Source: Hydractinia symbiolongicarpus
Lineage: Eukaryota
NCBI RefSeq assembly: GCF_029227915.1
Contig: NC_079879.1
Location: 27,507,095 to 27,571,094 of the forward strand
Direction: 5' to 3'
Length of the DNA stretch: 64,000 nt
This document shows positions 3,001 to 63,644 of the stretch, in pieces (positions within the stretch are counted from its first letter, which is position 1; every line of letters starts with the position of its first letter). Under the pieces are notes generated by a model. That model worked only from the letters and a program-made list of their open reading frames with translations. It did no database searches and was not told where the DNA came from. Position numbers and translations under genes: made by a program.

Positions 3001-6000
3001 GCCAATCGTAAACATTCGGGCTTTTCTTGTTATAAAAACAAGTAAAATAAAGCCGATCAATAGCTTGTCAATTTTAGTCATGTATTAAAGATTAAATCTA
3101 ATTTAGAAAGTAGAATAATGCAAAAAAAGTTAGAGAAAAAAAAACTTCGGCGAAAAGTATTTTTATTATTTCAATCACCCTTGTCAGTTTATTTTATTAA
3201 TTTTCTTTTAGTAAAATATTTAAATGTCGCAGCGGATTGAAAAATAGTAGTAGTAGGGATTCAGTCGAAGTGGAGAAGTTACAGCAAACGACAGTCAAAT
3301 CCCCACTTTACACACACTCCTCAACTACCCCTGAAAGACCTGTGATGTCAGTAACATTAATTTTCATAAATTATCAAAACTGCTGACATTAGCAAAAGCG
3401 TCACGTGACCCATACCGCGTATGTATAAATGTTTCATTAGAGAAGGGGATACCTGACGATCAAATCCATCAGCATATGCATGAGTACCTGAAAGCAACAG
3501 GGCGAAACCGAATTTCCGGCAGACGTTCTACAGTAAGATGATCAAGGATGTCCCAAGGTATGCGACACAACCTTTAGTAGAGATCAAAAAAGTTTGATCA
3601 AGCAATGCGACCTCCGTACCTTGCCTAGACGATCTCGCCAAATCGGCAATTCGCCAATTTGTATATGTTGAAATTCTACTCAAAGGTTTGAGATGTCGTA
3701 CACTGTGAACGTCTTGAGGAGTACGAAAAGACGAGACAAAATGGCTGTGACTGATGAGTACTTGTACAGGTCTGTTTAAACTATAATTCATAGGCTGACT
3801 GCAAAGTACTATTTTGTAGAAGGTAAAGATGGCACCAAGTCCTCCTTCTAAAGAATGTCTGAGAAACAGAAAACTATGAGTTACTGGTGGTATATGAAAC
3901 CTGTGAAAGGGAGAACGCAGGCTTAAGTGTACACGAACAAGGGATGGTAACTTACAAGCAAAGCAAACTACGTCCATCGGCGTTCCACGACAAAAGCCGC
4001 ATTTTACATGATGGTATACACAAAGCACCATTGAGTTGTAACGTGTCCAACGGAATTTTTGTATGCCTTAGAGGCATACAAAACACATGGAATCGAAACA
4101 ATGCATGCTGTGTATATGTTGTGTTACTTGCGGAATACCCATCATTAAATGGCATGGGTACTTTCATTTTTCCAAGTTTTTGTCACATATGGTAGTGGAA
4201 ATGGAATTAAAGAATACTGTTGTTGAGTGGAAGGGATTTTGTCATATGCTTGACAAAGAAACCTACCTAATGCTGTAGTAGAAAAATTTTCTGTAAGGTT
4301 GACCTGAGTTTGCTAAAATTCTAGTGTCTTCCCAGCTTACCATACATCTCGTACAGGATCATTTAGTAGTTGTGCATGTCATAAGTTCTTATACACAACC
4401 TCCTCGCAAATTCCTTGGTCTACGAACGAGGGTCCCTTCTCAACAACCTTTTGCACTCCTTCTTTCAGTAATCATCGGTATCCAGATTCTGCAATACAGT
4501 CATTGCTTTTGGTGGAAACTTTCCCCTTCTCTACTCAAACATATTTGCGCATACGCGGTATGAATCACGCGACGTTTTTGCCGATGTCAGCAATTTTGAT
4601 AATTACGATAATTTATGTTGATGACGTTACAGGTTTTTGTGGGGTAGCGTCGCGGGGTGGTTGTACTGGGGATTTGACCGGCGTGTAGTGTAACTCCACT
4701 TTGACTGACACCCTACTACTACTAAAATTCGAAGCAAGAAAGTAAATAAACAAAAAACAAGAATTTCTTTTATTGGAAAATTTACAAATCATCCAATTTT
4801 AGGTATTATTATTATCTGATGACAACAACAACAAAAACCTACTCTTCATTTGACGTGAGGCGATTGATCAGCCATTTTTCTTCTGTATTTTTGTTATTCA
4901 GATAGTAATCTTTCATGCTACCATACAACTTATATGCCAGCAAAATCTTTGGTAATGCATGACCTCCATAAAATAAGAACAACACAATAACCCACTGCAT
5001 GTTGGAGAGTATGGCGTAGAAGAAAAGCTGCATGAAAACGTCATCTTCGAAATCCTACAAAATTATTACAATGTGTGGTCAGCAAATATTGTTTCTTCGG
5101 GACTGTTTACAGAGAGAAGGGACGGGACATTTGCCTAGATCCTGCTCCATTTAATAATTATACTAAAAATCAATTTGTTCGTCCAAACGTGATCCACTTT
5201 CAGGCGGGACGGATTTTTCATAGAAACACACCGTCCTGAGAGAAACGAGATAATTTATGCACATTTTAATTCACAGAAAAAATATTGCAACAAAACGTTT
5301 TTCTATATAAAGGCAAGACGAAATCATCCTGTCTAATGCCCTGTCCAGGTAATCGTGCACTCCCGCCTCTGATGTAAACACACCCTTAATATGTTACAAG
5401 TTAGAAAATTTTCCTAAATTTAAATATACCTCATTATTTATATCTCCAAAATCTTTTAACATATCTAAAAAGTCCTTTCGCATGTCTTCCAGTGTCAGCT
5501 AAGAAAATGAAAGTTGTTTACAATTTAAACAGTGCTTTACCAGTAGAGATCTATTAAAGTGTTAAAATAATTTCTTCACCTCATTTTTATCAGTCAACAA
5601 ATGAAGAATGTTGATCTTTTTTTTCTTTAATTTCTAAAAAAAAAACCTATTAAAACATTGAGAACAAAATTCGGAAAAAAATGGGTAAAAATACTTGTCA
5701 AATGAAAATATACAAAGCAAAATTGGCTTAATGAAAGAGAACTACTTTGTTCATCACTAACATACTGCCTGGCAGTGAGCGGGATACGATCCGCGGTCCC
5801 CATAACTGGGAGCCACAGACGAACCCACTACACTACGTGCGGCAATATGTTAGTGATGAACTCAGATAGTTTATCCGGATGGTGTGTATACATAGGTGAA
5901 TATTTATCATAGCACATCCGTATTTCATTCTCAACAGAGAATGCTATCTAACTATCTGATCTGATCGGGGTGAAGCATTCTCTGTTGAGAATGAAATACG

Positions 6001-9000: not shown

Positions 9001-11262
9001 TTTCAGCCTAAATAATCTCTTTACTGAATTGCTGAATGCTTGCACCCAGCAGAGCTCTCACTAATAGAAGTGGTTCAAGAACTAAGACTTTCTTATTATT
9101 CAATCTAAATAATTTGTGACAATAAGATACGGTTATAAAGAACCATCGCACATACGTACATAACTACAGCAAAATATTTAAAAGAACTTTAAATATTGGA
9201 AACTCTCCGAACAGAATTCTATTTATATTTATAAATAGAATTTATAATGATACCTTGGAGAAAAGCATTCAATATCATTTCATCTAAATGATCTTCTTCA
9301 CCTAGAATGCTCAAAGTGATCTAAAAAAACAGGTTATTGAAGAAATGAAAGCCCAGAGATAAGAAGTGTATGTCCAAAAAAGTAGCCAGCCACTGAAGAG
9401 ACATTGTTGAACATACCACATAAAATAATTCCCACTTACATAAGTTTTGTATCGCATGCATTCCATGATAGTGTCATAACAAGTGATTGTTTTTGCCATT
9501 GACAAATCGGGAAATGTTTTTCCAATTAATTCAATTAATTTTTGGTGCTGTTGTAAATCTCTTAAATTGCAATTTTCTAACGGTTTCAAATCATAAGCAA
9601 AAATTAGCAATTCAGCAGCAAAACCAGTTCTCTTGAAGATTATCAATGACATTTTATTTTCAACTGTTTCTTTCACTTGGTTTATAATTTCTAGACCACC
9701 ACCTATAACTAATGCCACTCCGACATGCTTTCTCATGTTGCCTGAAAAAAAGAAATCCATTTTACTTTGAGGTTAATGAATTAATTTCTGTAAATTGCTA
9801 ATAATATATGCAGGTACATAGTACATATGCTAATGTGGGTTTATAGGTTTAATTTCTATAAAAAATTGTGGGAACTAGCTTATGTTTGCATTGTTAGAAG
9901 AAGGACACTTAAACTACAAATGTGCTCATACTTACAACCCAGGAAAAATATACCTAGACTTTCATTGTGAGATCTTCCTTCCTCGTTAAGGGAAATTGGG
10001 AAGATGCATAGTTGATGCTAACAAAATTACTTCAGGTATCTTAGAAGTATGGAATATTTACCTGCTTAGCGGAGGAGAGGAACCGTGAAAAGAGATTTCA
10101 AGATCACGAAAAGGCTAACTTAACACATTTTCCCAAATATATTATTCAGGGTTGTAATGGTAACAAGCAATCAATTTCGCACCTTTTCTTCCTGGTACTC
10201 CATATTCTAGAATATACTTTTCCAAGGATGTTTTAAACTTGATCTCGGTATGAAATTGATCTTTAGAACCGTCGTCTATGAGTAGAAAGTAGCTGTGATT
10301 TTGATCCAGGAATTTCTGTTTAGGAAGTTTCACATTCAGCTTTACATGGTTAATTCCATTAGGTTTGACAAGATCCGATGATTTAGGTAAGATTCCCCAC
10401 GGTAAAATTCCAATACAGCGCACACTTCTTTCCCTGTCGTAAACTGGCGTGGTGCTATCCATTTGAGTTTTGTTTCTTAACGCCAGGCCAACAATTTTGG
10501 TAATTCCAGCATTTTTTCCGTCGGTTAACACCAACGCACTAGTCATTCTTGCCACCTAATGAATAGAAAAGAGGACAGTTCGAAAACCTTTGTATACTTG
10601 GTAAAAGTGATGATCCAATAGCAATATAGTCATTATAAGGAACAAGTATACAAACGAGATTCGACAAAACGTTTTGTATATAAATACTAAATATATACGA
10701 AAATCTTTACCTTTATTAATCCCTTTTTAAATTGTTTTTCAAATTCCTTATCTTTAGTATATTCTGTTGGTGAACCAAGGACTGATATCAGAAGTTGTGA
10801 CTTGTCTCCAAATTGCCAATGAGTTTGCATATATTTAGTGACATCAGCTGGATCTGTGCGATCTGACAATCTGACATACTGCATGTAAGGATATTATTAT
10901 TTCTTCACGACAATTAAAAATGCAATAGGACAGGGGATGGATAAAATGTCAGCATTGTGCTAACTTCCTAACGATAAAACATTCGCTGCAAAAATGAAAT
11001 CTGTCATTGTTATAGTGTATTATTTACAGCATCAACTTACATTAGCTCGAGTATTTTTTTTGAATCCAACAAACGTGATGTCTCCATATGCGTCCGTGTC
11101 TTGTTCGATGTTTTCAGGGCTGCAACATTCTTTCCCATCTGTTTTTTCAGCTAGATGGTCTGGATGGCATGTGCAACTAAATAATGGAGAACAGGACTTT
11201 AAAATGGGGTATATAGAGGTGAGTTGCATCGTTTTCCGACTTTTGTTGGAATTGAAAAGCAC
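1..11262 (-). CDS. TRPM-family (melastatin-type TRP) cation channel gene, multi-exon and partial. The N-terminal MHR/SLOG region is at the high-coordinate end and TM S1-S6 at the low end; the C-terminus lies beyond position 1.
   Basis: Minus-strand exon translations match TRPM hallmarks in order: 'TDAYGDITFVGF' (N-terminal motif), 'YVRLSDRTDPADV..LLISVLG', SLOG segment 'VALVIGGGLEIINQ', MHR4 'LFFYAILSNMQWVIVLFLFYGG..ILLAYKLY', pre-S1 'YFGNLALDMLDE..CLALAASTRHIDFVSHDTCQLMLTEHWW', S1-S2 'LSYFLFVGFFAFVV..PEWIVAFYILAFIIEEFRQ', S3-S4 'MLDVFALALFIGAFALR..DIFFWIIRLLSVFAI..LGPYVEMIRRM', S5/pore 'DLLYFVFVLAVFLLAYGIARFAIL..SVPYKQMYADAMDEV', S6 'VAKILMAGYTLLAAVLLMNLLIA'. Exons are separated by GT..AG introns. 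Confidence 0.85.
136..265 (-). CDS. TRPM exon encoding the S6 helix (..APANLTVFNTSYSTVVAPVAKILMAGYTLLAAVLLMNLLIARF)
   Basis: Acceptor ttttttgcttcag lies upstream on the minus strand and donor gtgaca follows. The exon enters in phase 1, matching the upstream exon, and carries the conserved NLLIA S6 motif. Confidence 0.7.
402..579 (-). CDS. TRPM exon encoding S5 and the pore loop (VTDLLYFVFVLAVFLLAYGIARFAILSP..FSVPYKQMYADAMDEVGLN)
   Basis: Acceptor ttttatag and donor gtaaga, 178 nt, leaving phase 1. 'LYFVxxxL' and the pore-loop acidic cluster resemble TRPM S5-pore. Confidence 0.75.
933..1184 (-). CDS. TRPM exon encoding S2-S3 linker, S3 and S4 (IVQAPVGRTYYQKFKNYFSSFENMLDVFALALFIGAFALR..VDIFFWIIRLLSVFAISPELGPYVEMIRRM)
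   Basis: Acceptor tttttgcttag and donor gttagt, 252 nt in phase 0. It matches the TRPM S3-S4 consensus 'LDFxAxLLFIxGFxLR..DIIFWYVRLLDIF..LGPYVMMIGKM'. Confidence 0.8.
1541..1669 (-). CDS. TRPM exon encoding S1-S2 (LSYFLFVGFFAFVVTHQLKDKVAVPEWIVAFYILAFIIEEFRQ)
   Basis: Acceptor ttttttag and donor gtgagc, 129 nt. It matches TRPM 'LSYLGFLMLYTFVVL..EWIVIAYIFT..IEKxRE'. Confidence 0.8.
2397..2661 (-). CDS. TRPM exon of the pre-S1 region ((R)YFGNLALDMLDECTKQQQFFTRRLLCQEPEHFGFKSCLALAASTRHIDFVSHDTCQLMLTEHWWCGRIVTKGDSWFIHGLKVSFVHCP)
   Basis: Acceptor tgtttgcag and donor gtatag. It aligns with TRPM '[44 protein letters not shown]..FFCPP'. Confidence 0.75.
4845..5030 (-). CDS. TRPM exon of the MHR4 region (..LFFYAILSNMQWVIVLFLFYGGHALPKILLAYKLYGSMKDY..). 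Boundaries are approximate and taken from the ORF limits.
   Basis: It resembles TRPM '[38 protein letters not shown]'. Splice sites were not traced. Confidence 0.5.
5761..5835 (-). ncRNA. tRNA-like sequence: a tRNA pseudogene or the tRNA-derived head of a SINE
   Basis: The reverse complement reads '..GTAGTGTAGTGGGTTCGTCTGTGGCTCCCAGTTATGGGGACCGCGGATCGTATCCCGCTCAC..', with an A-box-like TAGTGTAGTGG and a B-box-like GGATCGTATCC. The cloverleaf could not be folded cleanly by eye. Confidence 0.3.
5880..6032. repeat. Near-perfect inverted repeat with ~55-bp arms (hairpin or MITE-like), directly downstream of the tRNA-like segment
   Basis: 5882-5936 'ataggtgaatatttatcatagcacatccgtatttcattctcaacagagaatgc' is the reverse complement of 5974-6030 'gcattctctgttgagaatgaaatacggatgtgctatgataaatattcacctata'. 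Confidence 0.8.
6712..6800. repeat. Minisatellite (gatatatagtatatat)n, about 5 units
   Basis: Direct tandem repetition is visible in the sequence. Confidence 0.85.
8186..8292. repeat. Tandem repeat of a ~23-bp unit (gttacatcatgtatatatggtya)
   Basis: About 4 degenerate tandem copies are visible. Confidence 0.75.
8450..8700 (-). CDS. TRPM exon of the N-terminal MHR region (..DIIIQNMVHAISISRHEEARVLMEYTMDFYDGNLNGVITKETLLWLYQ..). Boundaries are approximate.
   Basis: ORF 8440..8760 (-). It resembles TRPM '[29 protein letters not shown]..LTxLF'. Confidence 0.45.
8745..8900 (-). CDS. TRPM exon of the N-terminal MHR region (..LNSISNQLKLAIHWGCYDNVEFLLKKFDE..). Boundaries are approximate.
   Basis: ORF 8742..8960 (-). 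It resembles TRPM '[21 protein letters not shown]'. Confidence 0.45.
9440..9741 (-). CDS. TRPM exon of the SLOG/MHR domain ((G)NMRKHVGVALVIGGGLEIINQVKETVENKMSLIIFKRTGFAAELLIFAYDLKPLENCNLRDLQQHQKLIELIGKTFPDLSMAKTITCYDTIMECMRYKTY)
   Basis: Acceptor tttttttcag in phase 1, which completes Gly with the upstream exon, and donor gtaagt. The 'GGG' glycine-rich SLOG signature is present. Confidence 0.75.
10183..10555 (-). CDS. TRPM N-terminal exon (VARMTSALVLTDGKNAGITKIVGLALRNKTQMDSTTPVYDRERSVRCIGILPWGILPKSSDLVKPNGINHVKLNVKLPKQKFLDQNHSYFLLIDDGSKDQFHTEIKFKTSLEKYILEYGVPGRK)
   Basis: Acceptor ttcattag and donor gtgcga, leaving phase 1. It aligns with TRPM 'IGIAxWGxVxNRDxL..NHSHFxLVDDG..LRxxLEKxIS'. Confidence 0.75.
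10711..10878 (-). CDS. TRPM N-terminal exon (YVRLSDRTDPADVTKYMQTHWQFGDKSQLLISVLGSPTEYTKDKEFEKQFKKGLIK)
   Basis: Acceptor ttacatgcag and donor gtaaag, 168 nt in phase 0. It matches TRPM 'KYxRLSxDTD..LxxxWxLxxPNLxISVxGG..KxxFxxGLIK'. Confidence 0.75.
11031..11215 (-). CDS. TRPM N-terminal exon (..SCTCHPDHLAEKTDGKECCSPENIEQDTDAYGDITFVGFKKNTRAN). The 5' boundary is approximate and the initiator-Met exon was not located.
   Basis: Donor gtaagt lies immediately after codon N at 11031. 'TDAYGxIxFxG' is the conserved TRPM N-terminal motif. Confidence 0.55.
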
Positions 11263-20691: not shown

Positions 20692-21872
20692 TCATCCGGA
20701 AAAAAGTAAAGAGAGGGTTGAAGACTGCGTGGAACTGGAAGTATTAAGAGCTGTGGATTGGTTATGTACGTCAAGTTGGTTATTACTTGAGCTCAACATG
20801 TTTGACATTTTGTAACGGTGAGTGGTACTAGCTGATTTGTAATTTTTTAACGAATCAATGTTCTTGTGACCACTGTGTTGCGCTACATAAACTTCGGGGA
20901 CATTTGCATCCAATAGCTTTCCAATCGATATTTTTTTTAACGAATGATTTGCCACTTTTCTGCCTGTAAGCCCGTGTTTTTTGGAACTTAAAAGTTCTCC
21001 AATTTTATTTTTCCCGAGGGGAGTTTTCAAATACCAACTGTCTTCTTTTGTGTAGTCAGTTTTTTGCCACAATGTAAGAAAAAAGGCGGGTTTTCCATCC
21101 GCACTTCCTCCACTTGATGTTTATAAAGGGAGACTGGGAATCTTTCCGTTACGGTGGCAGATGCAGTGGGATAGAAAAATCTTTTTTCTTCCCTTTCATT
21201 TCCTTTTCTGGTTTTCGTACCTTTTTCCTTTACCAAAATTGAACATTCCCCTTTTTCTGGATCGTTTTCCAACACAATGTCTCCCCAAAGCAACTCTCTG
21301 GCCTCATCTCTTGCACGAAAGCCAAAATGTAATGAGATAACCCGCCACATTGTTCTTTGCAGTGTGAGTGCATCCTGTTTTCCAAAAAAGCCAGTCTTGT
21401 ATAATTTTTCAATTTCATGTTTATCCAATTCCCTTGTAGCATTTGGTTTACTTCCGTACCCAAGTTTTGTTAACTGCTTTCGTTTTGTTGCTAACACCTT
21501 TCTGGACTTTTCAAAATCATCATTAACAAGGATGTTAAAAGGAACTTTTATACTGTCTAGATGTCTTTGTAAGCCACGGTGTAGTGATGTAAGGGTGTCA
21601 GGTTCATATTCTTTTCCGTTCTTTTGTTTGACATTAATAAATAGTTTGCACAGTGTGTTGTTCAGTTCTTCTGGTGGTATGAGATGAGGCGGTCTATATT
21701 CTTGAATGCTTCGACAATACCTGACAAAGGTGTTTGCTGCAAAAGAATTATAATACTTTGTAGCTTTTGTAGACTGTTGTCCTGCTTTGAATTCGTCTAT
21801 GTCATTTAAATCGTCAAATAAACTATCGTCTACCAGACAAAAACAAGGAGTAATTGACTTTTTTCTACCACT
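20692..21872 (-). pseudogene. Crypton-like tyrosine recombinase / DUF3504-type ORF (Crypton-derived), disrupted by one frameshift and lacking an in-frame ATG
   Basis: Hand translation from the upstream stop at 21873-75 gives an N-terminal SAM-like region '..KYYNSFAANTFVRYCRSIQEYRPPHLIPPEELNNTLCKLFINVKQKNGKEYEPDTLTSLHRGLQRHLDSIKVPFNILVNDDFEKSRKVLATKRKQL..'. After a -1/+1 frame switch near 21030-21070, the C-terminal recombinase core follows: 'PLGKNKIGELL..GRKVANHSLKKISIGKLLDANVPEVYVAQHSGHKNIDSLKNYKSAS', which is the HxLR..GH..Y tyrosine-recombinase motif with R replaced by K. Confidence 0.6.
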
Positions 21873-28608: not shown

Positions 28609-29646
28609 TTAGCAGTGTATAAAGGGAAAATATTTGCTTCTCAAGCAGTTTTCATTCAAAGCAAAACTGGCTTTATAAAGATTCCTAAGCTTTTGGAAAC
28701 TCTCTCTCCAAGATAAATTTTTGTCCAGGAGAACTCCAAGAAATTTCATCGAATATTCTCTTCTTATGTTTACGCGATCAATAACTAATCCAGGTAACCT
28801 AAGAGGTATTTCATCTTTTTTACTAAGCTTGTGAAAAAAGGTATATCTAGTTTTTGAAGTGTTGAGGGATAATTTATTCGCTTTAAACCAATCAGCCAAT
28901 TTAGTCAATTCGGTGTTAGTAGTATCAAAAAGGACGTTTATATCTTTATGAGTAAAGAATAAATTTGTATTATCAGTAAATGAAATTGCATTCAAGACAC
29001 TAGATGCTCTAAATATATCATTGATATAGATAAGGAACAACAATAGTAATATAATTGTCCCTTGAGGTACTCCACATGCTATTAACCTGTAGTTAGTATT
29101 TCCTCCGTCATAAAAAATAAATTTTGTTCTTTCGAAGAGGTAGTTCTTAAACCATGCGAGGCATGTATTTCTTATGCCATAATATTTGAGTTTTTCTAAC
29201 AGAATCACATGGTCGACTGTATCTAATGCCTTGCTGATATTAATAAAGACCCCAATTGTAAATTTATTCTCATCAAAGGCTTAAAATATCTTTTGACTTA
29301 ACTGAATGATTGCGTGACCAGTTAAATGACATCCTTAAAAGCCAAATTGCTTATTATACAAAATATTTTTATTTTTTAGGAAGGAATAAATTCTGTTGTT
29401 CACGATTCTTTCCAAAATCTTCGAGAAACAGGGGAGTATTGAAATTGGTCTGTAGTTAGATACTCTATAAACATCTCCTGCTTTAAAGACTGGGACAACT
29501 CTAGCTATTTTTAACTTTTTAGGAACAATGCCTGTAATTAGAGATGAATTAAATATATGCAGTAGTGGAGATTTTAGTTCATTGAAACAGTTCTTTAAGA
29601 CATTGCTGCTGATTTGATCAAAACCAGGACTTTTGTTGATTTGCAA
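28609..29646 (-). CDS. LINE reverse transcriptase (two ORF pieces, frameshifted)
   Basis: RT motifs 'PGFDQI', 'FKAGD', 'RPISIL', 'GVPQGTIL..LFLIYINDI' and a degenerate YxDD box 'FTDNT'. Confidence 0.75.
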
Positions 29647-29898
29647 CGAATGAAATGCTGCCTCTAGTTCCTCCTCACTTAGCTCTTTTTCTCCATTTCA
29701 TTATCATGACATGACAAATACGATTTGAAGGATTTTGTACTGTGATCTATTTTTGGATGCCAAGATTGGTCCTATTTTAGTAAAAAAAATTTTTGAATTC
29801 CTCAGCTATCAAAGATGATTTCACAATTTGATTTTCGTTGTTTACAAGTTTTGAAGGAAAGAAATTACTTCTAATATTTAGTTTACCAATTACTCCAT

Positions 29899-29961
29899 TA
29901 ATTAGCTAATAAATGCGAGAAAAACATGGCATATGTTTTTCTCGCATTTATTAGCTAATTT
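29899..29961. repeat. Near-perfect 63-bp palindrome with 26-28-bp arms and a ~7-nt centre
   Basis: 'ttagctaataaatgcgagaaaaacat ggcatat gtttttctcgcatttattagctaa'. Confidence 0.9.
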
Positions 29962-30360
29962 GTTCATTAAAATTAAAATTCTTAGCACGCTTTTTTATTA
30001 ATTCAAAAAGGTTACAATAATCTTTACACAGTGTTTCATACCTGTAAGTTTTCTTTATATAATTTTTGTTTTCTTTGGGAAGATATTTGGAGGCCCTTAG
30101 TTATCCAGAGTTTTAAGAATGTTTTGGTCTTAATAAATTTGATTTCTTCTGGAAATGCTGCATCATAATTTTCCAAAAAAATTTGTTAGGGAAGCTATCA
30201 TATGCACCATTTTACCTTAGACAATAAATTCCTAAATAATGTTATTGCAGTTTAATTTTTTTTTGCTTTTTTATTTTACATGGTTTGACTGTTTCTCAAA
30301 GTTTGTACTGGACGTGATAAAGATTGGAAAATGATCAGAGATGTCTGCTTTAATAATACC

Positions 30361-30783
30361 CTAAAAGAGTTTTTTGTCGCAAAATGAATTTGTTATGATG
30401 TGATGAACTTTCGTAGCGTTTTGATTAGTTGTCCCGGTTGGTTTATTTATGAAAGGAATATACTGACTCCAAGATATGGAGTTAAAGAAATACTGGATGC
30501 TTTTGTTTATTTCATAATCAAGTGTGTTGAGGTTAAGATCCCCCACCAGGTATGTTGCTTTTCTAGTGTTTTTATTGTTCATTTTGATAAGCTCAAATAA
30601 CGTTTTAAAATTATCAATTATTCCTGCAGATGGCCTGTTTATTACGCTTACAATGATGTTTTTTGCTGTTTTGTTCAGTACTTCTATACTTAATGACTCA
30701 CAATCGTTATTACTCACATATAGCTCTGTTCTTTTTTTATACAATAGAGAGTTATGAATAAACAAACACACGCCACCACCCAC
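30361..30783 (-). CDS. LINE apurinic/apyrimidinic-like endonuclease domain (fragment)
   Basis: 'GGGVCLFIHNSLLY..LSIEVLNKTAKNIIVSVINRPSAG..YLVGDLNLN' has an exonuclease-endonuclease-phosphatase fold signature. Confidence 0.6.
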   Translation of the reverse strand: MGGGVCLFIHNSLLYKKRTELYVSNNDCESLSIEVLNKTAKNIIVSVINRPSAGIIDNFKTLFELIKMNNKNTRKATYLVGDLNLNTLDYEINKSIQYFFNSISWSQYIPFINKPTGTTNQNATKVHHIITNSFCDKKLF

Positions 30784-42383: not shown

Positions 42384-44146
42384 ATGGAAAAGAATCAACC
42401 CACTCCCGACTACAACAGAATGTACAACGATGACGAGTTTGGATATCCTGTGACAAATCAACCCTACATCTATCCTGGACGTTCTGTATGTTAATAAACT
42501 TAAAGGCGGGTTTCCACTGAAACGAATGTAGTCAAATCGATTGAATCGATCCATGGATTTTTAATTAAAATTGATTTTCACTTAAATTCCACCATATCTT
42601 AATCGATGACGATTCATTCAAATTTATTTTAAAACAAATAACACAAATTTGATATGAAATAATGATATTTAGCATGTACAAAATATTTTCGTGCTATTCT
42701 TTAAAAATTACTCATTCTTTTGCTTTGTGAGACTTTGAAACTTTTCTAAGAAGTGTCCGAAGACATTGAAATCCGCAATCTCATTCTACAAATAATATCT
42801 TAAATTCCTCAACACTCATCGACGAAAAATCACTCATCAGTGACGGTTGCTTTTGTCAAATAGTGTATTGATGTTGATGCATCAAATACACAATTACATT
42901 TTTGTTTAATATGTTTTAGCTGTCTTGCTTTTTCCCGCTTCTCAAAAAAGTTCATTTCTTCGTTGATTTGTTTAAACCACGTGGGTAAAAATCAATCAAG
43001 TAGAAAGCAATCCTACTTTTAAATTCTATTGAATTCGACCGCTGGGTCGACGTCGATCGACGAAGATGATGCAATGTTCTATTTTTAGTAGCCACCATTA
43101 TCAAACAAAAGCAACTTTTAGTTCGTCCATATTTTGTTTATTTGTGACGCCATGATGCGGTCGACGACAATCGATTTGACCATATTCGTTTAAGTGGAAA
43201 CCCTCCGTTACACTACTTTTTGTGTATTTTTTTTAAAGATTTGCTTTACGGACTTTACTAAAAAAATATTCTTTCCATTTTGCTAAATAGCATAGCTATG
43301 ATACTGACTAGCTTTGTACATCGAATCAATGAGCACCATCAAATGTAATACCTACCAGTATCAAAGATAAAAATCAAATATCGCGTACGCATTCAATAAA
43401 CAATGTTATTATTTGTTGCATCTCATTTTCTTAAGGTAAAAACTGTTACCATTTCTTTTTTCTCCTTATGCAAAACAAAAACTATTTTAAGTTTGATTCT
43501 ATGTGGGAAAATCTATTAGAATTTATGGAGATGACTGACTTAAACAGCACTCAGCCTCGTTTAAAAATCCCAAGACCAAATGTGTAACGAATTTTGATGT
43601 AATTGCTTCATCTGAATAAAATTTGCAAATCGGAACACTGCGCCACATCATTTAAAAAAGCAACTTAAGAAATCAAATGTAGCACGGAAAATTTCCTCTG
43701 CGATCCTTATTCAATGTATTTACATTTAGCAACCCATGTCTACAATGGTACCAGTTCAACAACCTTATGCAGAAACTGTGAATATACCAAACTATTTTGC
43801 TATATCTTTGCTATCTTGTATATTTTGTTGTTGGCCGGTTGGTATTGCTGCTATACTTAAATCCCAGGAGGTGAGTATCAAGGATTATTTTTTGTATAGG
43901 TTGTTGGAGCGGATGTTATTTCATTTATACAGCACATCTTCATTTTCTTTTAAAACATGTCGTAGTTGTTACTATCGTATGTTTTAGGTTAATAACGCAC
44001 TTGCTGTCAACGATATTCCACGTGCTCGAAAAGCATCAGACGCTGCTAAGAAATATGCCATCATTGCTTTTGTGCTTGGTTTGATTCTTATACCTGTCGT
44101 CGTTGTGACAAGAATAATGATAGCAAGCCAACAAGAACAACGATAG
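42384..44146 (+). CDS. CD225/dispanin-family (IFITM/PRRT-like) small membrane protein, paralog A. Three exons: 42384-42485, 43730-43870 and 43988-44146.
   Basis: Exon 1 'MEKNQPTPDYNRMYNDDEFGYPVTNQPYIYPGRS' ends at donor gtatgt. Exon 2 follows acceptor tttag: 'QPMSTMVPVQQPYAETVNIPNYFAISLLSCIFCCWPVGIAAILKSQE', then donor gtgagt. Exon 3 follows acceptor ttttag: 'VNNALAVNDIPRARKASDAAKKYAIIAFVLGLILIPVVVVTRIMIASQQEQR*'. 'CCWPxGxxAxxxSxxV..GD/ND..A..AS..AK' followed by a TM helix is the CD225 signature. Confidence 0.8.
42496..43210. mobile_element. TIR-bounded MITE (~715 bp) lying in intron 1 of CD225 paralog A
   Basis: 42496 'ggcgggtttccactgaaacgaatgtagtcaaatcgattg' is the reverse complement of 43163-43210 'caatcgatttgaccatattcgtttaagtggaaaccctccg', about 39 bp with ~4 mismatches. 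Confidence 0.7.
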
Positions 44147-47981: not shown

Positions 47982-48336
47982 GTGTCTGTACCAAACTACG
48001 CTGTCATGTCTTGGCTAGCTTGTTTGTTTTGTTGTTGGCCAATTGGTATTGCAGCTATAATTAAATCCAACGAGGTGAGCACCATGCCAATCCCATAATA
48101 ATATTACTCGAATCACTTTTTTAATGTGGTTGCATTTACTTTGTTATCTCAAATGTAATTCGTGCTTGTTTTAGGTGGATAATGCACTTGTTGTCAAGGA
48201 TATTCCACGCGCTCAACGAGCATCAAAAGCTGCTAAGAAATACGCCATTGTTGCCGTTATACTTAGCCTGATTTTCATACCTATTGCCATTGTACTAATT
48301 CGTCAAAGTGTGTTGAATGTGATGAATGCAAATTGA
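47982..48336 (+). CDS. CD225/dispanin-family paralog B. Exons 2 and 3 are at 47982-48074 and 48175-48336. Exon 1 is uncertain or possibly disrupted.
   Basis: Exon 2 follows acceptor cattag: 'VSVPNYAVMSWLACLFCCWPIGIAAIIKSNE', then donor gtgagc. Exon 3 follows acceptor ttttag: 'VDNALVVKDIPRAQRASKAAKKYAIVAVILSLIFIPIAIVLIRQSVLNVMNAN*'. Exon structure and phases match paralogs A and C. Confidence 0.7.
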
Positions 48337-51485: not shown

Positions 51486-51926
51486 TTGAGGCAAGTGATG
51501 TTTTGTTTGCTTTTCAATGTTTCACGATGGAAGCACATTATGCTGGATCAAGCAAAACACGGCCAAAAAAACTTATCTGGAGGGTATGGTAGATACTGTT
51601 GCATAACGCAATGTACCAGTGCGTTTTATAATTCAGAAAGAAAACCAGCTGGCATATCTTTTTTGAAGATCCCTCAAAAAAATCCGGAAAGAAAAAGGTG
51701 GATTAACGGGATACGCAATTTTAAAAAACAGGGAGCAAGCGATGGATTTGATTTTGCTAAAAAAATATATGTTTGGGAATTTCATTTCCAGGCAGAGGAT
51801 ATTCGTGTTTCATTGGGTATTGGTAGAAAAACATTGAAGCCGAGAGAAATACCTTCAATTTTTGAGTTCAAAAAGAAGAAAGAAAAGCGTAAGGAAATGT
51901 CCAAAGAAGCGATCATGGATAATTAA
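51486..51926 (+). CDS. THAP-like zinc-finger domain ORF, with the third Cys apparently replaced
   Basis: 'YCCITQCTSAFYN..ISFLKIPQKNPERKRWINGI..IYVWEFHFQAEDI..REIPSIFEF' follows the THAP layout CxxC..W..P..(C)xxH..AVPTIF. 'WEFHF' sits where 'CxxHF' is expected. Confidence 0.5.
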   Translation: MRQVMFCLLFNVSRWKHIMLDQAKHGQKNLSGGYGRYCCITQCTSAFYNSERKPAGISFLKIPQKNPERKRWINGIRNFKKQGASDGFDFAKKIYVWEFHFQAEDIRVSLGIGRKTLKPREIPSIFEFKKKKEKRKEMSKEAIMDN

Positions 51927-52194
51927 TGACAAATGTCTTTTGAATATACACCTGACAGTGAGGGAGAAATCTCGGATGAGAGTGAAACCAGTTTAATAGA
52001 AAATTAATAACTAAGGGAAAAAATAAAGAAATTGGAAGAGGAAAAAAACTTTATTGCAAAGTGAACATACTTATTGCAATCTGCAAGTCTTTATAGGCAT
52101 GATAGTAAATCGAAAAATAAAAAACATTTCAAAAGCACAACTGGCTTAGATCCAGATATTTTTTGATCCTGGTGAAGACTGTAAAAGTTTCAAA

Positions 52195-52964
52195 ATGTAT
52201 GATACAAATAAAGATTTATCTGAGGAAGTTTTCACAACATCAGAAGACTCATATATGTTGAAGACAGGACCGAAACCAAAAGTTTCACTAATAGATCAAT
52301 TATTTCTTTACATAACTTGGCTACGAAATGGCTTTACATTACAACACACTGCGTGGCTTTTTGATGTTTCCATACCAATTTGACCCAAAAGAAGACAAGT
52401 TGACAAACATATGTCGAAAGTTTCAAAAGAACCTATCCTACCAGAAGGTGTATAATTGATTGCACTGAGCTGTTTTATCAAAGACTATCCTCACTTATAA
52501 CACAAAGTTCACTTTATTCACATTATAAGAATCATGTGAGATACAAAGGATTAGTTGGCATATCCCCTCCTGGATCCATAACATTTGTCGGTCAGTTGTA
52601 TGATGGCTCTATCCCAGACAAGGAAATTGTAGTTAAATCAAGATTATTAGAAAAACGACTGTGGCAGGAAAATGATAGTGTCATGGCTGACAGAGGCTTC
52701 ACAATTCAAAACGAATTAAATTCACTCAATGTCAAATTAAATGTTCCTTGTTTCCTAGCTGGTAGAGAACAACTAACAGTTGCAGAGGTGAAGGAAAGTC
52801 AAACGATTGCTTCAGTACGTATACATGTTGAAAGAGCAATACAAAGAATAAAAAAGTTTCGAGTATTGAGAAACGAAATACCGCTTACTTTACATAGTTC
52901 AGTGAACCAGATTTGGACTGTTTATTGCCTTCTATGTAATTTTGTGCCATTTTTAATACAGTAA
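52195..52964 (+). CDS. Harbinger/PIF-type DDE_Tnp_4 transposase, second and distinct copy from the 27-kb one; interrupted across frames
   Basis: N-terminal HTH-like 'LIDQLFLYITWLRNGFTLQHTAWLFDVS'. C-terminal 'ADRGFTIQNEL..LNVPCFLAGREQLTVAEVKESQTIASVRIHVERAIQRIKKFRVLRNEIPLTL..VNQIWTVYCLLCNF' is the characteristic Harbinger block. Confidence 0.7.
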
Positions 52965-59810: not shown

Positions 59811-62800
59811 ATGGAGGAAAAAGCTGAAAGTCAACCTAGTTACGCAGGCGCAACTTATTCTCAACAACATCAACAGGAACAACCATTGCTACCGGTGCAA
59901 ACACAGGTATGTGAACTAAATTTATTGTTATTACCAAAAACCTTCTCATGTCTTTTTCGTATGACTTTAGAATTTCATACGAGTGTGATCATTATTCCTT
60001 ACATTAACGCTTCTACGGAATTGAATGTTATCAAAATATAAGAGGAAAAGCAAACCAAAATGTAGAATAGAAAAATTCATTGTCTTAGGAAAACTAAGAT
60101 TAAAGATTAAGAATGCTTATGCGCTTAATTTTTATTTAGCAACCTTTCACCACAGTTGTAACAGTACAACAACCTTTTGTGCAACCGGTTCATGTACCAA
60201 ACTACGCTGTCTTATCTTGGCTCGCTTGTTTCTTTTGTTGTTGGCCAATTGGCATTGTAGCTGTGGTTAAATCCTTCCAGGTGAGCATTATGCCAATCCT
60301 ATAAATATTACTTACTTTATTGCATAAAAATTTCGCGCCATGAAAATTTCGCGGTCATTTTAATTTCGCGGTTTTTTTGCCCAAAGTTGCATTTCGCGGC
60401 ATTTTAATTTCGCGGTTAAAGCCAAAATACAAATTTCGTGTTATTTTAATTTCGCAGTCCAAGAGAAAAAGTGAATTTTGCGACATTTTAATTTCGCGGT
60501 TCGAGAAAAATTTTTTGAAAGAAAGAAGTTCGAGAAAAGTTTTTTTGAAAAAATGCCTATTTTTACCATCGCAGACATAAATAAGATATTGTTCAAAGGA
60601 AGATTTGCGATTATATTTTCTCAACAAATAATCATTCTTCCGTAAGATTGGCGAATACGCCTGGAAGTTTCGCTGCGACTCAGAAATCTCGTCATCTTCG
60701 TCATCACTTACCTTGTCTGATTCACAGGGGCCATAACCATGGAGCTGCTGATTTTTCTCTGACATTTATAGAAAGGGCGTAATGTTGTTTTTGCTTTCGG
60801 GTTGAGCCGTCGACATTAAAAGGTGGATATGTTGCAGGGGGTCCAATTCTGGTAAGGTTTCATAGCTTTTGTCGTTTGCCTCTCTTATCCCAGATGCTTT
60901 CCATCCATTAAAAATCACTTTCTTTCCCTTACTTGTGCTCATATGGTTGTAAAATTCCATCAGCCATTTAGCGTGCAGTGGTTTGAGTGTTGTCAGTTGG
61001 AGTTTGACATCAATTGCCTCTAGTTATTTGCTGTCGTCAAGCTGCTGGAATATTTGATCGGTATACCATTCATTGAACATTTTTTTACAATATTTTTTGG
61101 CGTATCCATTCACTGTAAGATCTAGGGACTGGAAAATCGATGTCATGTTCACTGGAACAAAGTCGAACAGGATATTGTTTTCTTTAAGTAGATCTAACAC
61201 CGGCTGAATGACTTGACCTTTGAAGACATCGAATATAGCCGGAGCTTCCTGGCTTGGGAAATCCAATCGTTCTCGTTCGCTCTCGATGTATGGGATCAAA
61301 ATCTCCTTAATAAATTTCATTGATTCCAGTTCGCTGCTGTAATGTTTTTGTTGACACTGAGCGAAGAATTTGGTGGAAATTGGAATCTTTGAGTGGTTTT
61401 CCATTTGTAGATAAATTGCATTCCAAAAAATTGACCATCCAGCGTGGTCGTTATAGCACGTTTATCATCACTTCCTTTGATGACAAACTGCCTGCTTTTC
61501 CGTTCAGCTAAAGTGGTGCTGGTAACTGGAACAAATTTGGAAGAGGTTTGGTCGAAATTTAGGATGAGCGTTTCCGGCATTGATTTATCGGTTACTTTCT
61601 TTACGATTGAATGGTTGAAAAGCACTTGCGTCTCTTTTTGCCACCAGAGGGAATGACAAGGTTTGCAGTGGTGGCCTTTCTTCGACTGAACTTCATTCTC
61701 ATAAATAAGCTTTGTGCCCAGGAGCGTTCATTGATCGAAATCGGCAATGCTAATCTAGGATATCGTTTCATGAATGCTTTTGCAGCAGAGACGGCTACTG
61801 ATCGTGTGATAACAGCCCCGTGATTCGACGCAGCCCTGATGTAGCTTTGGGCCATCTCATCTAATCTTCCAAGAAGAAGAGGGCATCCTTGTCTTTGTCT
61901 TCTAGAGTAAACATTTTGCCTTTAGACATTGAAAGCTCTTGCCCATACCTATTCTGAAATCCCCTGGCCGTGCTTTCGTTTATGTTTGGAAACTTTTGCT
62001 TGAACGCTCTCACGCATTCAGAGGAATCATTCTCACTCGCATATTTCCCAATGTTAAATCTATCCTGCGCTGTGTATGCGACGCACTTTCCTCGAGAAGA
62101 GCTCTCTTCAGACACCGATGTTTCAGCAGCAACAAAGTCAATGGTTCCCAAATCCGATTGGCTATCTTGGCTGCTCCCGCCTAAGATATAAAGGACAAAT
62201 TTGATAAATATTGCAGGAAAGAGAAAACATATTAAGTGCATACCGTGATAATATTTTATGAATTTGCATAAATAGGAAAACACTTGATGAGACCAAAATT
62301 TAATACTTTTGTTTATACACTTACTTTGAGATTGATCCATGTCTTACTTCTTTGAGTGCACGATAACAAAGAAAGACATAAAACAGTAATTCGAATGTTA
62401 TGAAACGTGACACTGTCGGCGCTTGCTTTGTGGCGGCGAGACAGTCTTTCACTTTGTAATTGACATGATTCGAAATTCGAATGTTTTGAAAAAAATAAGA
62501 ATGTGCACACATTTGAAAAAGAGCTTTATACAACACGCACACAGCTATGAGTCAGCTCCATAATATTCCTTGTCATCCGAGGTTTTCATTATTATCGTCA
62601 TTATTGGACACCTCATCTTGGGGAAGAATTGGTTTGTCAGTATGATGGCTTCAACCCATTTGATGTTTTCGCCACCAAAACGTGTTCCAAAGAAAATGGT
62701 CGAACTTACAGACATTTGTTCTCACGGGCAACAAAATATTTGATTGACAGGGGTGCTGAAGTTTTCGTAGAAGTATCATCAAACCATTATTGCCGTTCTC

Positions 62801-63644
62801 CACATGTTCAGGGTGGTCTTGAATTTCCTTGTAAATTATCGGTTAAATTGGCCGTCGCAAGAATTAAAAAAAAATGCTGATCGAGAGATGTAAACAAATA
62901 TTACAACAACTCTATGAAGAATCTGCAGAAGAAGTTATCATGGGTTTACTTTTTGTCGACGATTGTTTGGAACTCGATGATGTGGAAAATGAAACAAATA
63001 TTTGTGAAACGCGCCAAAACAGAAAAAGAAAACTTGATAAAGTGAACAAAAAAAAAACAACGTCAAAAAGTCAAATCAAGAATCTTATCAGCCCAGTTGT
63101 AGCAGAAGTAAAGATGTAAGAACATTTTTAAGCCTTGTCAAAGGAGAAGAATGTGTAGGAACAGAGTAAAAAATCTAATGTTATTGTGATTGACTAAAGA
63201 AGATTGTAATTTTCCTTCCATATTGTATTAAATACCGTACATGGTAGCTTATATGGTAAAAAAATAATAATACCGTTTCGATTCTTAGTCGTATTTTTTT
63301 GCAAAAAAGCCCGGATTCTCGGGCCTTTTAATTTCGCGGTTTCAAAAACTGGATTTTTTTGCGCATTTTAATTTCGCGTTTTTTTTGGTTCCTACCGCGA
63401 AACAGCGAAATTTTAATGCCGCGAAATTTTCATGCAATAAAGTAATTTATTTTTACTTAATTAATTTTTTAAAATCGTTTAATGCTTCCTTTAGGTGAAT
63501 AATGCTCTTGCAGTAAATGATATTCCACGTGCCCAGAGAGCATCCGAAGCAGCTAAGCAATATGCCATTTCTGCTGTGATATTTGGCATCGCTTGTATAG
63601 TTGGTAGCATTGTGCTACAGTTGTTCGTTTTGGGACCTAAATAG
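59811..63644 (+). CDS. CD225/dispanin-family paralog C. Exons are 59811-59906, 60140-60280 and 63495-63644. Intron 2 is expanded to ~3.2 kb by a transposon.
   Basis: Exon 1 'MEEKAESQPSYAGATYSQQHQQEQPLLPVQTQ' ends at donor gtatgt. Exon 2 follows acceptor tttatttag: 'QPFTTVVTVQQPFVQPVHVPNYAVLSWLACFFCCWPIGIVAVVKSFQ', then donor gtgagc. Exon 3 follows acceptor cctttag: 'VNNALAVNDIPRAQRASEAAKQYAISAVIFGIACIVGSIVLQLFVLGPK*'. Confidence 0.8.
60306..63452 (-). mobile_element. pogo/Tigger-like (Tc1/mariner superfamily) DNA transposon, ~3.1 kb, with TIRs and subterminal tandem repeats, inserted in intron 2 of CD225 paralog C
   Basis: TIR: 60312 'ttactttattgcat' is exactly the reverse complement of 63433-63446, with extended similarity to about 60360 and 63400. 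Subterminal 'attttaatttcgcgg' repeats lie at 60340-60500 (~5 copies) and 63310-63425 (~4 copies). Internal minus-strand ORFs carry a CENP-B/Tc5-type HTH and a DDE domain. Confidence 0.7.
60355..62340 (-). CDS. pogo-like transposase (HTH_psq/CENP-B N-terminus, HTH_Tc5, DDE_1), split over several frames by frameshifts or introns
   Basis: N-terminal 'KCVAYTAQDRFNIGKYASENDSSECVRAFKQKFPNINESTARGFQNRY' (61861-62340). HTH_Tc5-like 'GAVITRSVAVSAAKAFMKRYPRLALPISINERSWAQSLFMRMKF' (61601-61855). DDE start 'LILNFDQTSSKFVPV..RKSRQFVIKGSDDKRAITTTL' (61317-61625). DDE C-terminal 'DVFKGQ..LLKENNILFDFVPVNMTSIFQSLDLTVNGYAKKYCKKMF', matching pogo 'IxLLFLPPNTTSxLQPLDQGVIxxxKxxYR' (61024-61404). Acidic C-terminal tail (60355-60765). 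Confidence 0.65.

Follow-up and report, generated by a model that had tools for sequence, protein, structure and literature searches.

Three CD225 paralogs, here called A, B and C, lie in tandem in a 64-kb stretch of DNA from the colonial hydrozoan Hydractinia symbiolongicarpus (contig NC_079879.1, positions 27,507,095 to 27,571,094 of the forward strand; hereafter the window, numbered from its first letter). Why is intron 2 of paralog C 3214 bp long, when the same intron measures 117 bp in paralog A and 100 bp in paralog B? An original prediction, made from the sequence alone, had attributed the difference to a pogo-like DNA transposon that expanded the intron from about 0.1 kb to 3.2 kb, and this proposal is supported by a TA target site, a DD35D catalytic triad and relatives carrying the Pfam domain DDE_1, with a reconstructed pre-insertion intron of 84 bp. 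We conclude, with a probability of about 0.9, that the intron holds a fossil cut-and-paste transposon with two genes, that it belongs to the pogo superfamily and that it inserted at a TA dinucleotide after paralogs B and C had split. One of its genes is a transposase pseudogene on the minus strand; the second, which the prediction overlooked, is a pseudogene for a HIRAN-domain protein on the plus strand.

The insertion in intron 2 of CD225 paralog C

Exon coordinates confirmed the intron sizes. Exon 2 of paralog A ends at 43870 and exon 3 starts at 43988, giving an intron at 43871-43987, while the corresponding positions in paralog B are 48074 and 48175 (intron 48075-48174). Paralog C (LOC130646309) is read on the plus strand and consists of exon 1 at 59811..59906 (an ATG-initiated open reading frame, ORF, followed by a GTATGT donor), exon 2 at 60140..60280 (47 codons ending in KSFQ, placed by tblastn and sequence reading) and exon 3 at 63495..63644 (49 codons and a stop, placed by sequence comparison). 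Intron 2, read directly from the sequence at 60281..63494, is a phase-0 GT..AG intron of which 97% is transposon; it begins with GTGAGC and ends with CCTTTAG, and its GT/AG sites and polypyrimidine tract are intact. The spliced 128-amino-acid (aa) product matched Pfam CD225 (E 5.6e-22, 78.1 bits against a cut-off of 27.1) over residues 52-115, which straddle the exon 2/3 junction. Since this product is identical to the LOC130646309 protein of H. symbiolongicarpus (P0279, annotated as 'uncharacterized protein'; 100% identity over 100% of the length), the annotated gene model uses exactly these exons and splice sites, in agreement with the earlier claim that splicing signals had survived the insertion.

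The transposon proper spans 60315..63442 (3128 bp; assigned to the minus strand, that of its transposase gene) and is bounded by terminal inverted repeats (TIRs) and by TA dinucleotides at 60313..60314 and 63443..63444, the two copies of the target site being located by comparison with paralog B and with related termini. It thus fills 3128 of the 3214 bp, and the description of the intron as almost wholly a TIR-bounded element holds. The span of 60306-63452 first given for it was right in delimiting one such element, and its exact limits had to be drawn in to those above. The TIR had also been called exact. A 14-nt sequence, TTACTTTATTGCAT, does occur exactly twice in the window, at 60312-60325 (+) and 63432-63445 (-), but only 11 of its nucleotides belong to the true terminus, the others being the TA duplication and one flank base that matches by chance. 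The TIR proper, starting from CTTTATTGCAT, matches at 37 of 41 positions between the two ends (90%), and the inverted repeat can be followed to 54 nt at 87% (blastn self-match, E 2.4e-12). Its transposase-side copy at 60315..60355 (+) contains two ..AAAATTTCGCG.. units and is homologous to termini of three related loci (L001, L003 and L004), and the HIRAN-side copy at 63402..63442 (-) was defined by its inverted-repeat pairing with the other end.

Paralog B served as a proxy for the empty site. The junction reads ...ATATTACT-CG-AATCAC in paralog B and ...ATATTACT-TA-element-TA-ATTTAT in paralog C, and the left flank is collinear, with gtgagcaccatgccaatcccataataatattact-CG-aatcac in paralog B against gtgagcattatgccaatcctataaatattact-TA-element-TA-atttat in paralog C, where the element runs from CTTTATTGCAT to ATGCAATAAAG. 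Removal of 60315-63442 and one TA from the intron leaves 84 bp. When this reconstructed intron was aligned end to end with the paralog B intron, the score was 94.5, compared to 42.8 +/- 6.1 (maximum 64.5) for 500 shuffles; the intron alignment proposed with the original prediction yields a reconstructed empty site, and the element has TA on both flanks. These alignments show that TA was duplicated on integration. A 37-fold expansion of an intron within the CD225 domain is compatible with the annotated gene model.

Related copies share these ends. Six termini from four independent copies (both ends of the window element and of L003, and one end each of L001 and L004) read TA|CTTTAWTG, with a variable base before the TA, and the DNA of the element is 75-76% identical to L001 and L009 across nearly its whole length. 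We considered other target-site duplications and rejected them: for a Harbinger-like 3-bp TTA/TAA duplication, the two sides are reverse complements rather than direct repeats, and a TTAC or 8-bp duplication is not present at the right flank. The sole metagenome match to CTTTATTGCATRAAAATTTYGCG lies on an unrelated, bacterial-looking contig, where no TA flanks it and no element ends; it was taken as chance.

Both ends of the element carry arrays of a short repeat, as had been predicted. Four CATTTTAATTTCGCGG units with a period of 42-44 bp lie at 60356..60502 (+), and two more, at 63326 and 63366, lie within 63316..63382 (+) and are inverted with respect to the adjacent TIR units; both arrays were identified from repeat families and motif counts. 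Allowing at most one mismatch, TTTTAATTTCGCGG has six copies, every one within the element ends. Allowing two, it has seven in the window against 1.0 expected, a count that none of 100 shuffles reached. All six copies are on the plus strand, so at the right end the inner two point the opposite way to the two units of that TIR. L003 and L005 show the same layout, with units in both orientations, at their HIRAN-side end, and L004 shows it at its transposase-side end. By analogy with other elements, the subterminal CATTTTAATTTCGCGG units are presumed to be putative transposase binding sites.

Two further features of this intron were observed. Read outward, the TIR tip is ...GCAATAAAG|TA in the window element and L001 and ...CCATTAAAG|TA in L003 and L004 (window 60315-60325 and 63432-63442; L001 2111-2123; L003 305-317 and 4083-4095; L004 about 5383-5395). 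The conserved tips thus place an outward AATAAA/ATTAAA poly(A)-signal hexamer at both ends, downstream of each of the two divergent genes; the plus-strand AATAAA copy at 63436 lies within the host intron, 59 nt upstream of the 3' splice site. The hexamer may be only part of a site for transposase recognition or cleavage, or may act as a terminator as well. Separately, paralogs B and C agree at ~88% of positions over the first ~34 nt of intron 2 (48075-48114 and 60281-60314), compared to 72-81% nucleotide identity in the flanking exons; a conserved splicing element or local gene conversion could account for this. We also considered whether paralog B is a pseudogene and set the idea aside: the '*' in the tblastn alignment of its exon 2 sits upstream of the conserved part and may be intronic.

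Transposase pseudogene and superfamily

The transposase gene was traced by tblastn with the intact transposase of the related locus L009, and occupies 60632..62340 on the minus strand. Its exon 1 is only 16 nt long (62325-62340, with the ATG at 62340) and is followed by a 144-nt intron (62181-62324) and by exon 2 (60632-62180), which ends in the ancestral TGA stop at 60632-60634. The exon 1 donor, ATGGA(T/G)CAATC(T/A)CAAA|GTAAGT, is also present in L009, and splicing at it keeps the reading frame in the window copy as it does in L009. The nearest intact relative (512 aa, L009) aligns in four collinear segments in frames -2, -1, -3 and -2, with 70-86% identity. Two in-frame stops (61024-61026 and 60766-60768) interrupt the reading frame, which has also lost two short stretches in frame and, towards the C-terminus, shifts once more ahead of the ancestral TGA. 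The statement that the element encodes a transposase consequently has to be replaced: what the minus strand carries is a pseudogene, with two in-frame stops, frameshifts and in-frame deletions.

The frame-repaired translation of 565 aa nevertheless retrieved 161 homologs (best P0001, E 1.3e-180), so that both transposase homology and alignable TIRs (37/41), two of the findings on which the original prediction was staked, were obtained. All 41 aligned relatives match Pfam DDE_1 (PF03184) at E <= 0.01, and P0121, the nearest intact one, does so with 24.1 bits (cut-off 22). Three aspartates, D201, D316 and D352, are invariant in the 41 sequences and define a DD35D triad, within the range of spacings found in pogo elements (DD29-59D). 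The window remnant retains the corresponding motifs NFDQT, IFDVF and QSLD, the last two spaced by 35 residues. None of the 41 relatives matched CENP-B_N, BrkDBD or HTH_psq at E <= 0.01.

An AlphaFold model of the nearest relative has a mean predicted local distance difference test (pLDDT) score of 78 and places two helical bundles N-terminal to the catalytic core. A Foldseek search with this model returned the Mos1 mariner transpososome as the best match (E 5e-9), followed by the Metnase/SETMAR and Sleeping Beauty catalytic domains, with a probability of 1.00; CENP-B was not among its top 50 fold matches. A sequence search of the PDB with the transposase profile found nothing at E <= 1. Collectively, the TA duplication, the DD35D triad, the DDE_1 relatives and the Mos1-like modelled fold identify the element as a member of the pogo superfamily, within the IS630-Tc1-mariner group.

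Within pogo, the element looks Passer-like from its sequence, a placement suggested by the DD35D spacing, which Fot and Fot-like elements also have. Passer, Fot and Fot-like elements are nearly all DD35D, and pogo families other than Fot and Fot-like retain TA duplications, with TIRs of at most 40 bp in most families (PMC7386202). The element shares with Passer (Gao et al. 2020, PMC7386202; Wang et al. 2023, PMC9976928) the TA duplication, DD35D, DDE_1, short terminal repeats and metazoan hosts that include cnidarians, and one oomycete Passer has a TIR with a CTTTA-type start (Table S1, PMC9976928). Passer elements have been described with one ORF of 400-500 aa and TIRs shorter than 30 bp that mostly start with CCGTA. 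In contrast, the window element family has two genes, a transposase of 512-550 aa, TIRs of ~41-44 nt (CTTTAWTG), subterminal TTTCGCGG arrays and no BrkDBD match.

Drosophila pogo and human Tigger belong to the same superfamily and share DDE_1, the DDD triad and the TA target; they differ in that, in the family described here, a DIRxxF motif resembling a PCNA-interacting protein (PIP) box sits in the separate HIRAN protein rather than in the transposase, and CENP-B_N was not found. For the TTTCGCGG arrays, the best precedent is Lemi1/Emigrant, a pogo-like transposon of Arabidopsis together with its miniature inverted-repeat transposable element, since Lemi1 proteins bind the TIRs and, cooperatively, subterminal repeated motifs (PMC1636448). 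Lemi1 differs in being a plant element whose repeat sequence is unrelated and for which no HIRAN gene is reported.

The divergent HIRAN-domain gene

The second gene is a pseudogene at 62547..63197 on the plus strand, the host sense strand, where tblastn with the intact ORF2 of L009 identified the remnant of a protein of ~215 aa. With one of its two genes in this orientation, the element is not simply antisense to its host gene. The start codons of the two genes, ATG 62340 reading leftward and ATG 62547 reading rightward, are separated by a 206-bp spacer (62341..62546), presumed from this geometry alone to be a putative bidirectional promoter. The remnant reads MSQLHNI..IRGFHYYRHYWTPHLGEELVCQYDGFNPFDVF...GGLEFPCKL...NVIVID*, and L009 ORF2 (225 aa) aligns to it at 62575-62868 in frame +1 (78% identity) and at 62874-63194 in frame +3 (50%). 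At the DNA level, the region is 71-76% identical to the matching part of L001 and L009. Its lesions comprise at least two frameshifts, one of them N-terminal and following ATG 62547, in-frame stops at 63117, 63129 and 63156, and a deletion of three residues in the GHLPKEIS motif, by which GHLPKEISR became RHL---FSR.

A divergent, head-to-head HIRAN ORF was present in every related locus with at least 1 kb of sequence upstream of the transposase gene (L001, L003, L004, L005, L006 and L009-L014, in addition to the window). Intact ORFs of ~200-225 aa were found in L003, L005/L006 and L009, and those of L010-L014 are cut by contig ends. The transposases of the lineages with intact HIRAN ORFs are only ~50-55% identical to that of L009. 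Two of these loci have features of their own. In L004 (933-2909), the two genes are ~2 kb apart, compared to the usual ~0.5-0.7 kb, with a 46-nt inverted-repeat pair between them (1143-1673), and another small element may have inserted in this spacer. L001 (5530-6260) is truncated at its transposase-side end, where sequence for a Pao-type retrotransposon protein (PF05380) adjoins it, pointing to either a nested insertion or some rearrangement.

We identified the domain from intact relatives. ORF2 of L003 matched Pfam HIRAN (PF08797) with E 1.5e-9 and 38.0 bits against a cut-off of 24.7, ORF2 of L005 fell just under it at 24.3, and a PF08797 match is precomputed for many homologs of the protein. 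The family profile matched solved HIRAN chains of HLTF at E ~1e-6. In the profile alignment, GfHyy of the family corresponds to GLRYY of HLTF, nnaFD to NNPYD and GhLPrE to GHLKKE, with the YY and (F/Y)D positions aligned; we take these HLTF stretches to include residues that contact the DNA 3' end. In a predicted structure of the HIRAN protein, nearly all 10-residue blocks up to residue 130 average a pLDDT of at least 90, and the best Foldseek matches were DNA-bound HLTF HIRAN structures (4s0n and 6kcs; E 1e-6, target-normalised template modelling score 0.71-0.74), with a weaker match to Kluyveromyces lactis Rad5 (E 1.5e-3). On this modelling, the product of the second gene has a HIRAN fold with conserved residues in the predicted DNA 3'-end pocket.

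Conservation extends beyond the domain. Family members have a conserved basic linker, and 45 of 47 contain the PIP-like DIRxxF motif, which in two of the 47 forms a canonical PIP box (QKDIRNFF or QKDIRSFF, the former in Hydractinia LOC130657458). A hydrophobic-acidic stretch at the extreme C-terminus, such as VIVID, which resembles a SUMO-interacting motif (SIM), occurs in 34 of the 47. No canonical PIP box was found in the 41 transposases of the element family; a relaxed pattern, xxx[ILM]xx[FYLM][FY], matched 34 of 41 and was discarded as too permissive to carry meaning. A whole-library search with the HIRAN profile yielded 221 cluster representatives at E <= 1e-30, and since the best 150 of these 221 are all 108-291 aa long, they are stand-alone proteins rather than fusions. 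One homolog (P0273, locus L015) adjoins an unrelated DUF8422 gene, on a contig that ends 141 bp upstream.

The association also appears in a published Passer element. The 5' part of the Amphimedon sponge 'PasserB' (Table S1, PMC9976928) translates to MATREETFIFSSVIRGHHVYK...DNPHDRHAIA...GHMPRK, and this ORF matched the HIRAN ORF2 family with an hhalign probability of 99% (E 4.8e-18), with a weak match to Pfam HIRAN (E 8e-4). Since a published sponge Passer has a homologous HIRAN-like ORF, the 'single ORF' description of Passer is possibly incomplete and not defining.

The protein can be compared with three known systems. The HIRAN domains of HLTF and Rad5 are 3'-OH DNA-end binding modules of fork-remodelling SNF2 enzymes, and the protein described here is predicted to share their fold; it differs in being a transposon-encoded, stand-alone protein of ~200 aa without SNF2 or RING domains, in which the HIRAN domain is combined with a basic linker and PIP-like and SIM-like motifs. 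PIF/Harbinger elements are eukaryotic cut-and-paste elements that likewise have two separate genes, for a transposase and a Myb-like accessory protein. They differ in their unrelated DDE_Tnp_4 transposase, in their 3-bp duplication and in their accessory protein, a DNA-binding Myb/SANT protein rather than a HIRAN protein. The layout of PIP-like and SIM-like motifs is reminiscent of the SUMO-PCNA receptors Srs2 and PARI, which read SUMO-PCNA through a tandem of a PIP-like motif and a SIM, with the C-terminal carboxylate of Srs2 joining the SUMO contact (PMC3714560).

Alternatives, mechanism and significance

Both genes of the window copy are inactivated by frameshifts, stops and small deletions, and since both are broken, the copy cannot move by itself. 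Compared with intact L009 over 593 codons, it differs at 13.5%, 9.3% and 37.3% of first, second and third codon positions, respectively. This pattern indicates that most of the ~24% DNA divergence arose under coding constraint, between active subfamilies, which probably resided in different hosts; contigs of the L009 type come from Tara coral metagenomes. The second-position difference bounds neutral decay since inactivation at about 9%, and the lesion load (5 stops and ~9 indels in 2.3 kb) points to a few per cent, giving a rough overall estimate of ~3-9%. With the second gene also broken, TIRs that are 90% identical and a copy that is dead as coding sequence, we would no longer call the insertion relatively recent.

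Several observations weigh against a two-gene pogo element. The DDE_1 match of the window remnant is a single fragment below threshold (E 0.025, 14.6 bits), and Pfam returned no match for the frame-repaired transposase or for the HIRAN remnant of the window. We ascribe the sub-threshold DDE_1 score to fragmentation of the remnant, and because the window remnants lie below Pfam thresholds, families were assigned through intact relatives with 66-86% identity. The N-terminal DNA-binding domain of the transposases is recognised weakly, HTH_Tnp_Tc5 being matched by 5 of the 41 relatives (best E 3.4e-5); with CENP-B_N in none of them, the label 'CENP-B type' given to the transposase is not upheld. 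A blastn self-comparison found no second copy of the element in the window, and the role of the HIRAN protein in transposition is one that we infer from conserved linkage only.

Could the 3.1 kb instead be ancestral intron sequence that was deleted from paralogs A and B? Our comparison is between paralogs of one genome only, which leaves some room for this idea, but the segment begins and ends exactly at a 41-nt TIR flanked by identical TA dinucleotides, its removal restores an intron collinear with that of paralog B, and elements of the same type with the same termini occur at unrelated loci of other assemblies. We therefore regard deletion from A and B as very improbable. We think just as little of an assignment to another superfamily with subterminal arrays (hAT, P or PIF/Harbinger), in which the similarity to DDE_1 would be spurious. 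Long subterminal arrays are better known in hAT, CACTA, P and Harbinger elements, and the remnant itself does not reach the DDE_1 threshold; the flank, however, is a 2-bp TA and not a 3-bp or 8-bp duplication, DDE_1 and an invariant DD35D triad are found in all 41 relatives, the predicted fold is like that of Mos1 and Sleeping Beauty, and the pogo-like Lemi1 also employs subterminal repeats (PMC1636448).

More weight attaches to the idea that the HIRAN ORF is not a functional part of the transposon but a passively captured host gene fragment (transduplication) or an unrelated neighbour, as the single ORF of published Passer descriptions (PMC9976928) and the DUF8422 gene beside the L015 homolog, whose upstream side ends with the contig, might suggest. 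Yet intact ORFs of ~200-225 aa occupy the same divergent position in five lineages whose transposases are only ~50-55% identical, and conservation reaches past the HIRAN core to the DIRxxF (45/47) and C-terminal (34/47) motifs. The 221 representatives found at E <= 1e-30, of which the best 150 are all short and stand-alone, and the homologous ORF at the 5' end of a published sponge Passer also speak for a functional part, and we consider passive capture unlikely. Somewhat less likely still is that the window copy can still move as a non-autonomous element, driven in trans by intact members of its family. The copy has kept both termini, its TA flanks and most TTTCGCGG units, and the annotation of the species includes an intact HIRAN homolog from a related subfamily (LOC130657458), but the TIRs differ at 4 of 41 positions and no relative above 90% identity was found in the collections searched.

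Other mobile-element remnants are present in the window. The interval between paralogs B and C contains ORFs for a THAP domain (51486-51926, +; E 6.6e-10) and for DDE_Tnp_4 (52536-52964, +; E 2.2e-30), which mark the region 51486-52964 as the remnant of a PIF/Harbinger-type transposon. An RVT_1 ORF at 28609-29208 (-; E 1.2e-10), with an upstream ORF at 30361-30783 (-) that has no Pfam match, is probably part of a retrotransposon fragment of the long interspersed nuclear element type (28609-30783). A sub-threshold DUF3504 match at 21027-21497 (-; E 3e-6, 27.8 bits against a cut-off of 29.7) is possibly another such remnant, DUF3504 occurring in Crypton-derived and ZMYM-type proteins. Two ORF pieces upstream of the CD225 cluster, at 9311-9760 (-) and 10142-10555 (-), match the SLOG domain of TRPM channels (LSDAT_euk; E 6e-8 and 1.3e-23) and represent exons of a TRPM-like gene (9311-10555).

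Returning to the reading of intron 2 as the site of a two-gene pogo element, we propose the following course of events. After paralog C had separated from paralog B, the element integrated at a TA, 32 nt into a phase-0 intron that was then 84 bp long and that lies within the CD225 domain of paralog C; since splicing discards it along with the intron, the host tolerates it. By analogy with studied relatives, an active element would have produced a DDD transposase from its intron-containing gene, and this enzyme would have bound the TIRs starting with CTTTAWTG and the TTTCGCGG motifs within the TIRs and subterminal arrays, then excised the element and inserted it at a new TA. The divergently transcribed HIRAN protein of ~200 aa may have served as an accessory transposition factor, a role suggested by its conserved linkage. 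It may bind the 3'-OH ends that arise in excision, integration or gap repair, and it may contact PCNA or SUMO-PCNA through its tandem of PIP-like and C-terminal SIM-like motifs.

These features raise a broader possibility, which we hold tentatively and with more doubt than confidence: that the element represents a widespread, so far undescribed two-component pogo/Passer lineage with a conserved HIRAN accessory factor. Combining a 3'-OH-end-binding fold, a PIP-like box and a SIM-like motif, this factor would replace the PCNA contact that pogo/Tigger transposases make themselves and would tie excision, integration or gap repair to the 3' ends found at replication forks.

In the open-access text searched (mostly titles and abstracts, with Repbase not covered), we found no paper linking HIRAN with pogo, transposons or transposable elements, and none in which 'HIRAN' and 'pogo' occur together. 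The word HIRAN is likewise absent from two pogo classification papers and the Passer paper, in those parts of them that were checked. In these papers, the ORF content is described as one for Passer and as 'one or two ORFs encoding transposases' for pogo (PMC7386202, PMC9976928). Given the homology of sponge PasserB and the cnidarian copies, the association of HIRAN with pogo seems old and widespread, and it seems undescribed in that open-access text.

The insertion itself is ordinary; the conserved HIRAN accessory gene of its family offers a lead of modest novelty. Few Tc1/mariner/pogo elements carry accessory genes, and the group is usually treated and engineered as a set of minimal one-gene systems; Passer is under development as a gene-transfer vector. 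If the proposed lineage is real, some pogo/Passer lineages would need a DNA-end-binding cofactor or work better with one, and there would be a new way to test the long-standing, unexplained link between pogo transposases and PCNA. The HIRAN domain would also gain a new biological context beyond fork-remodelling enzymes.

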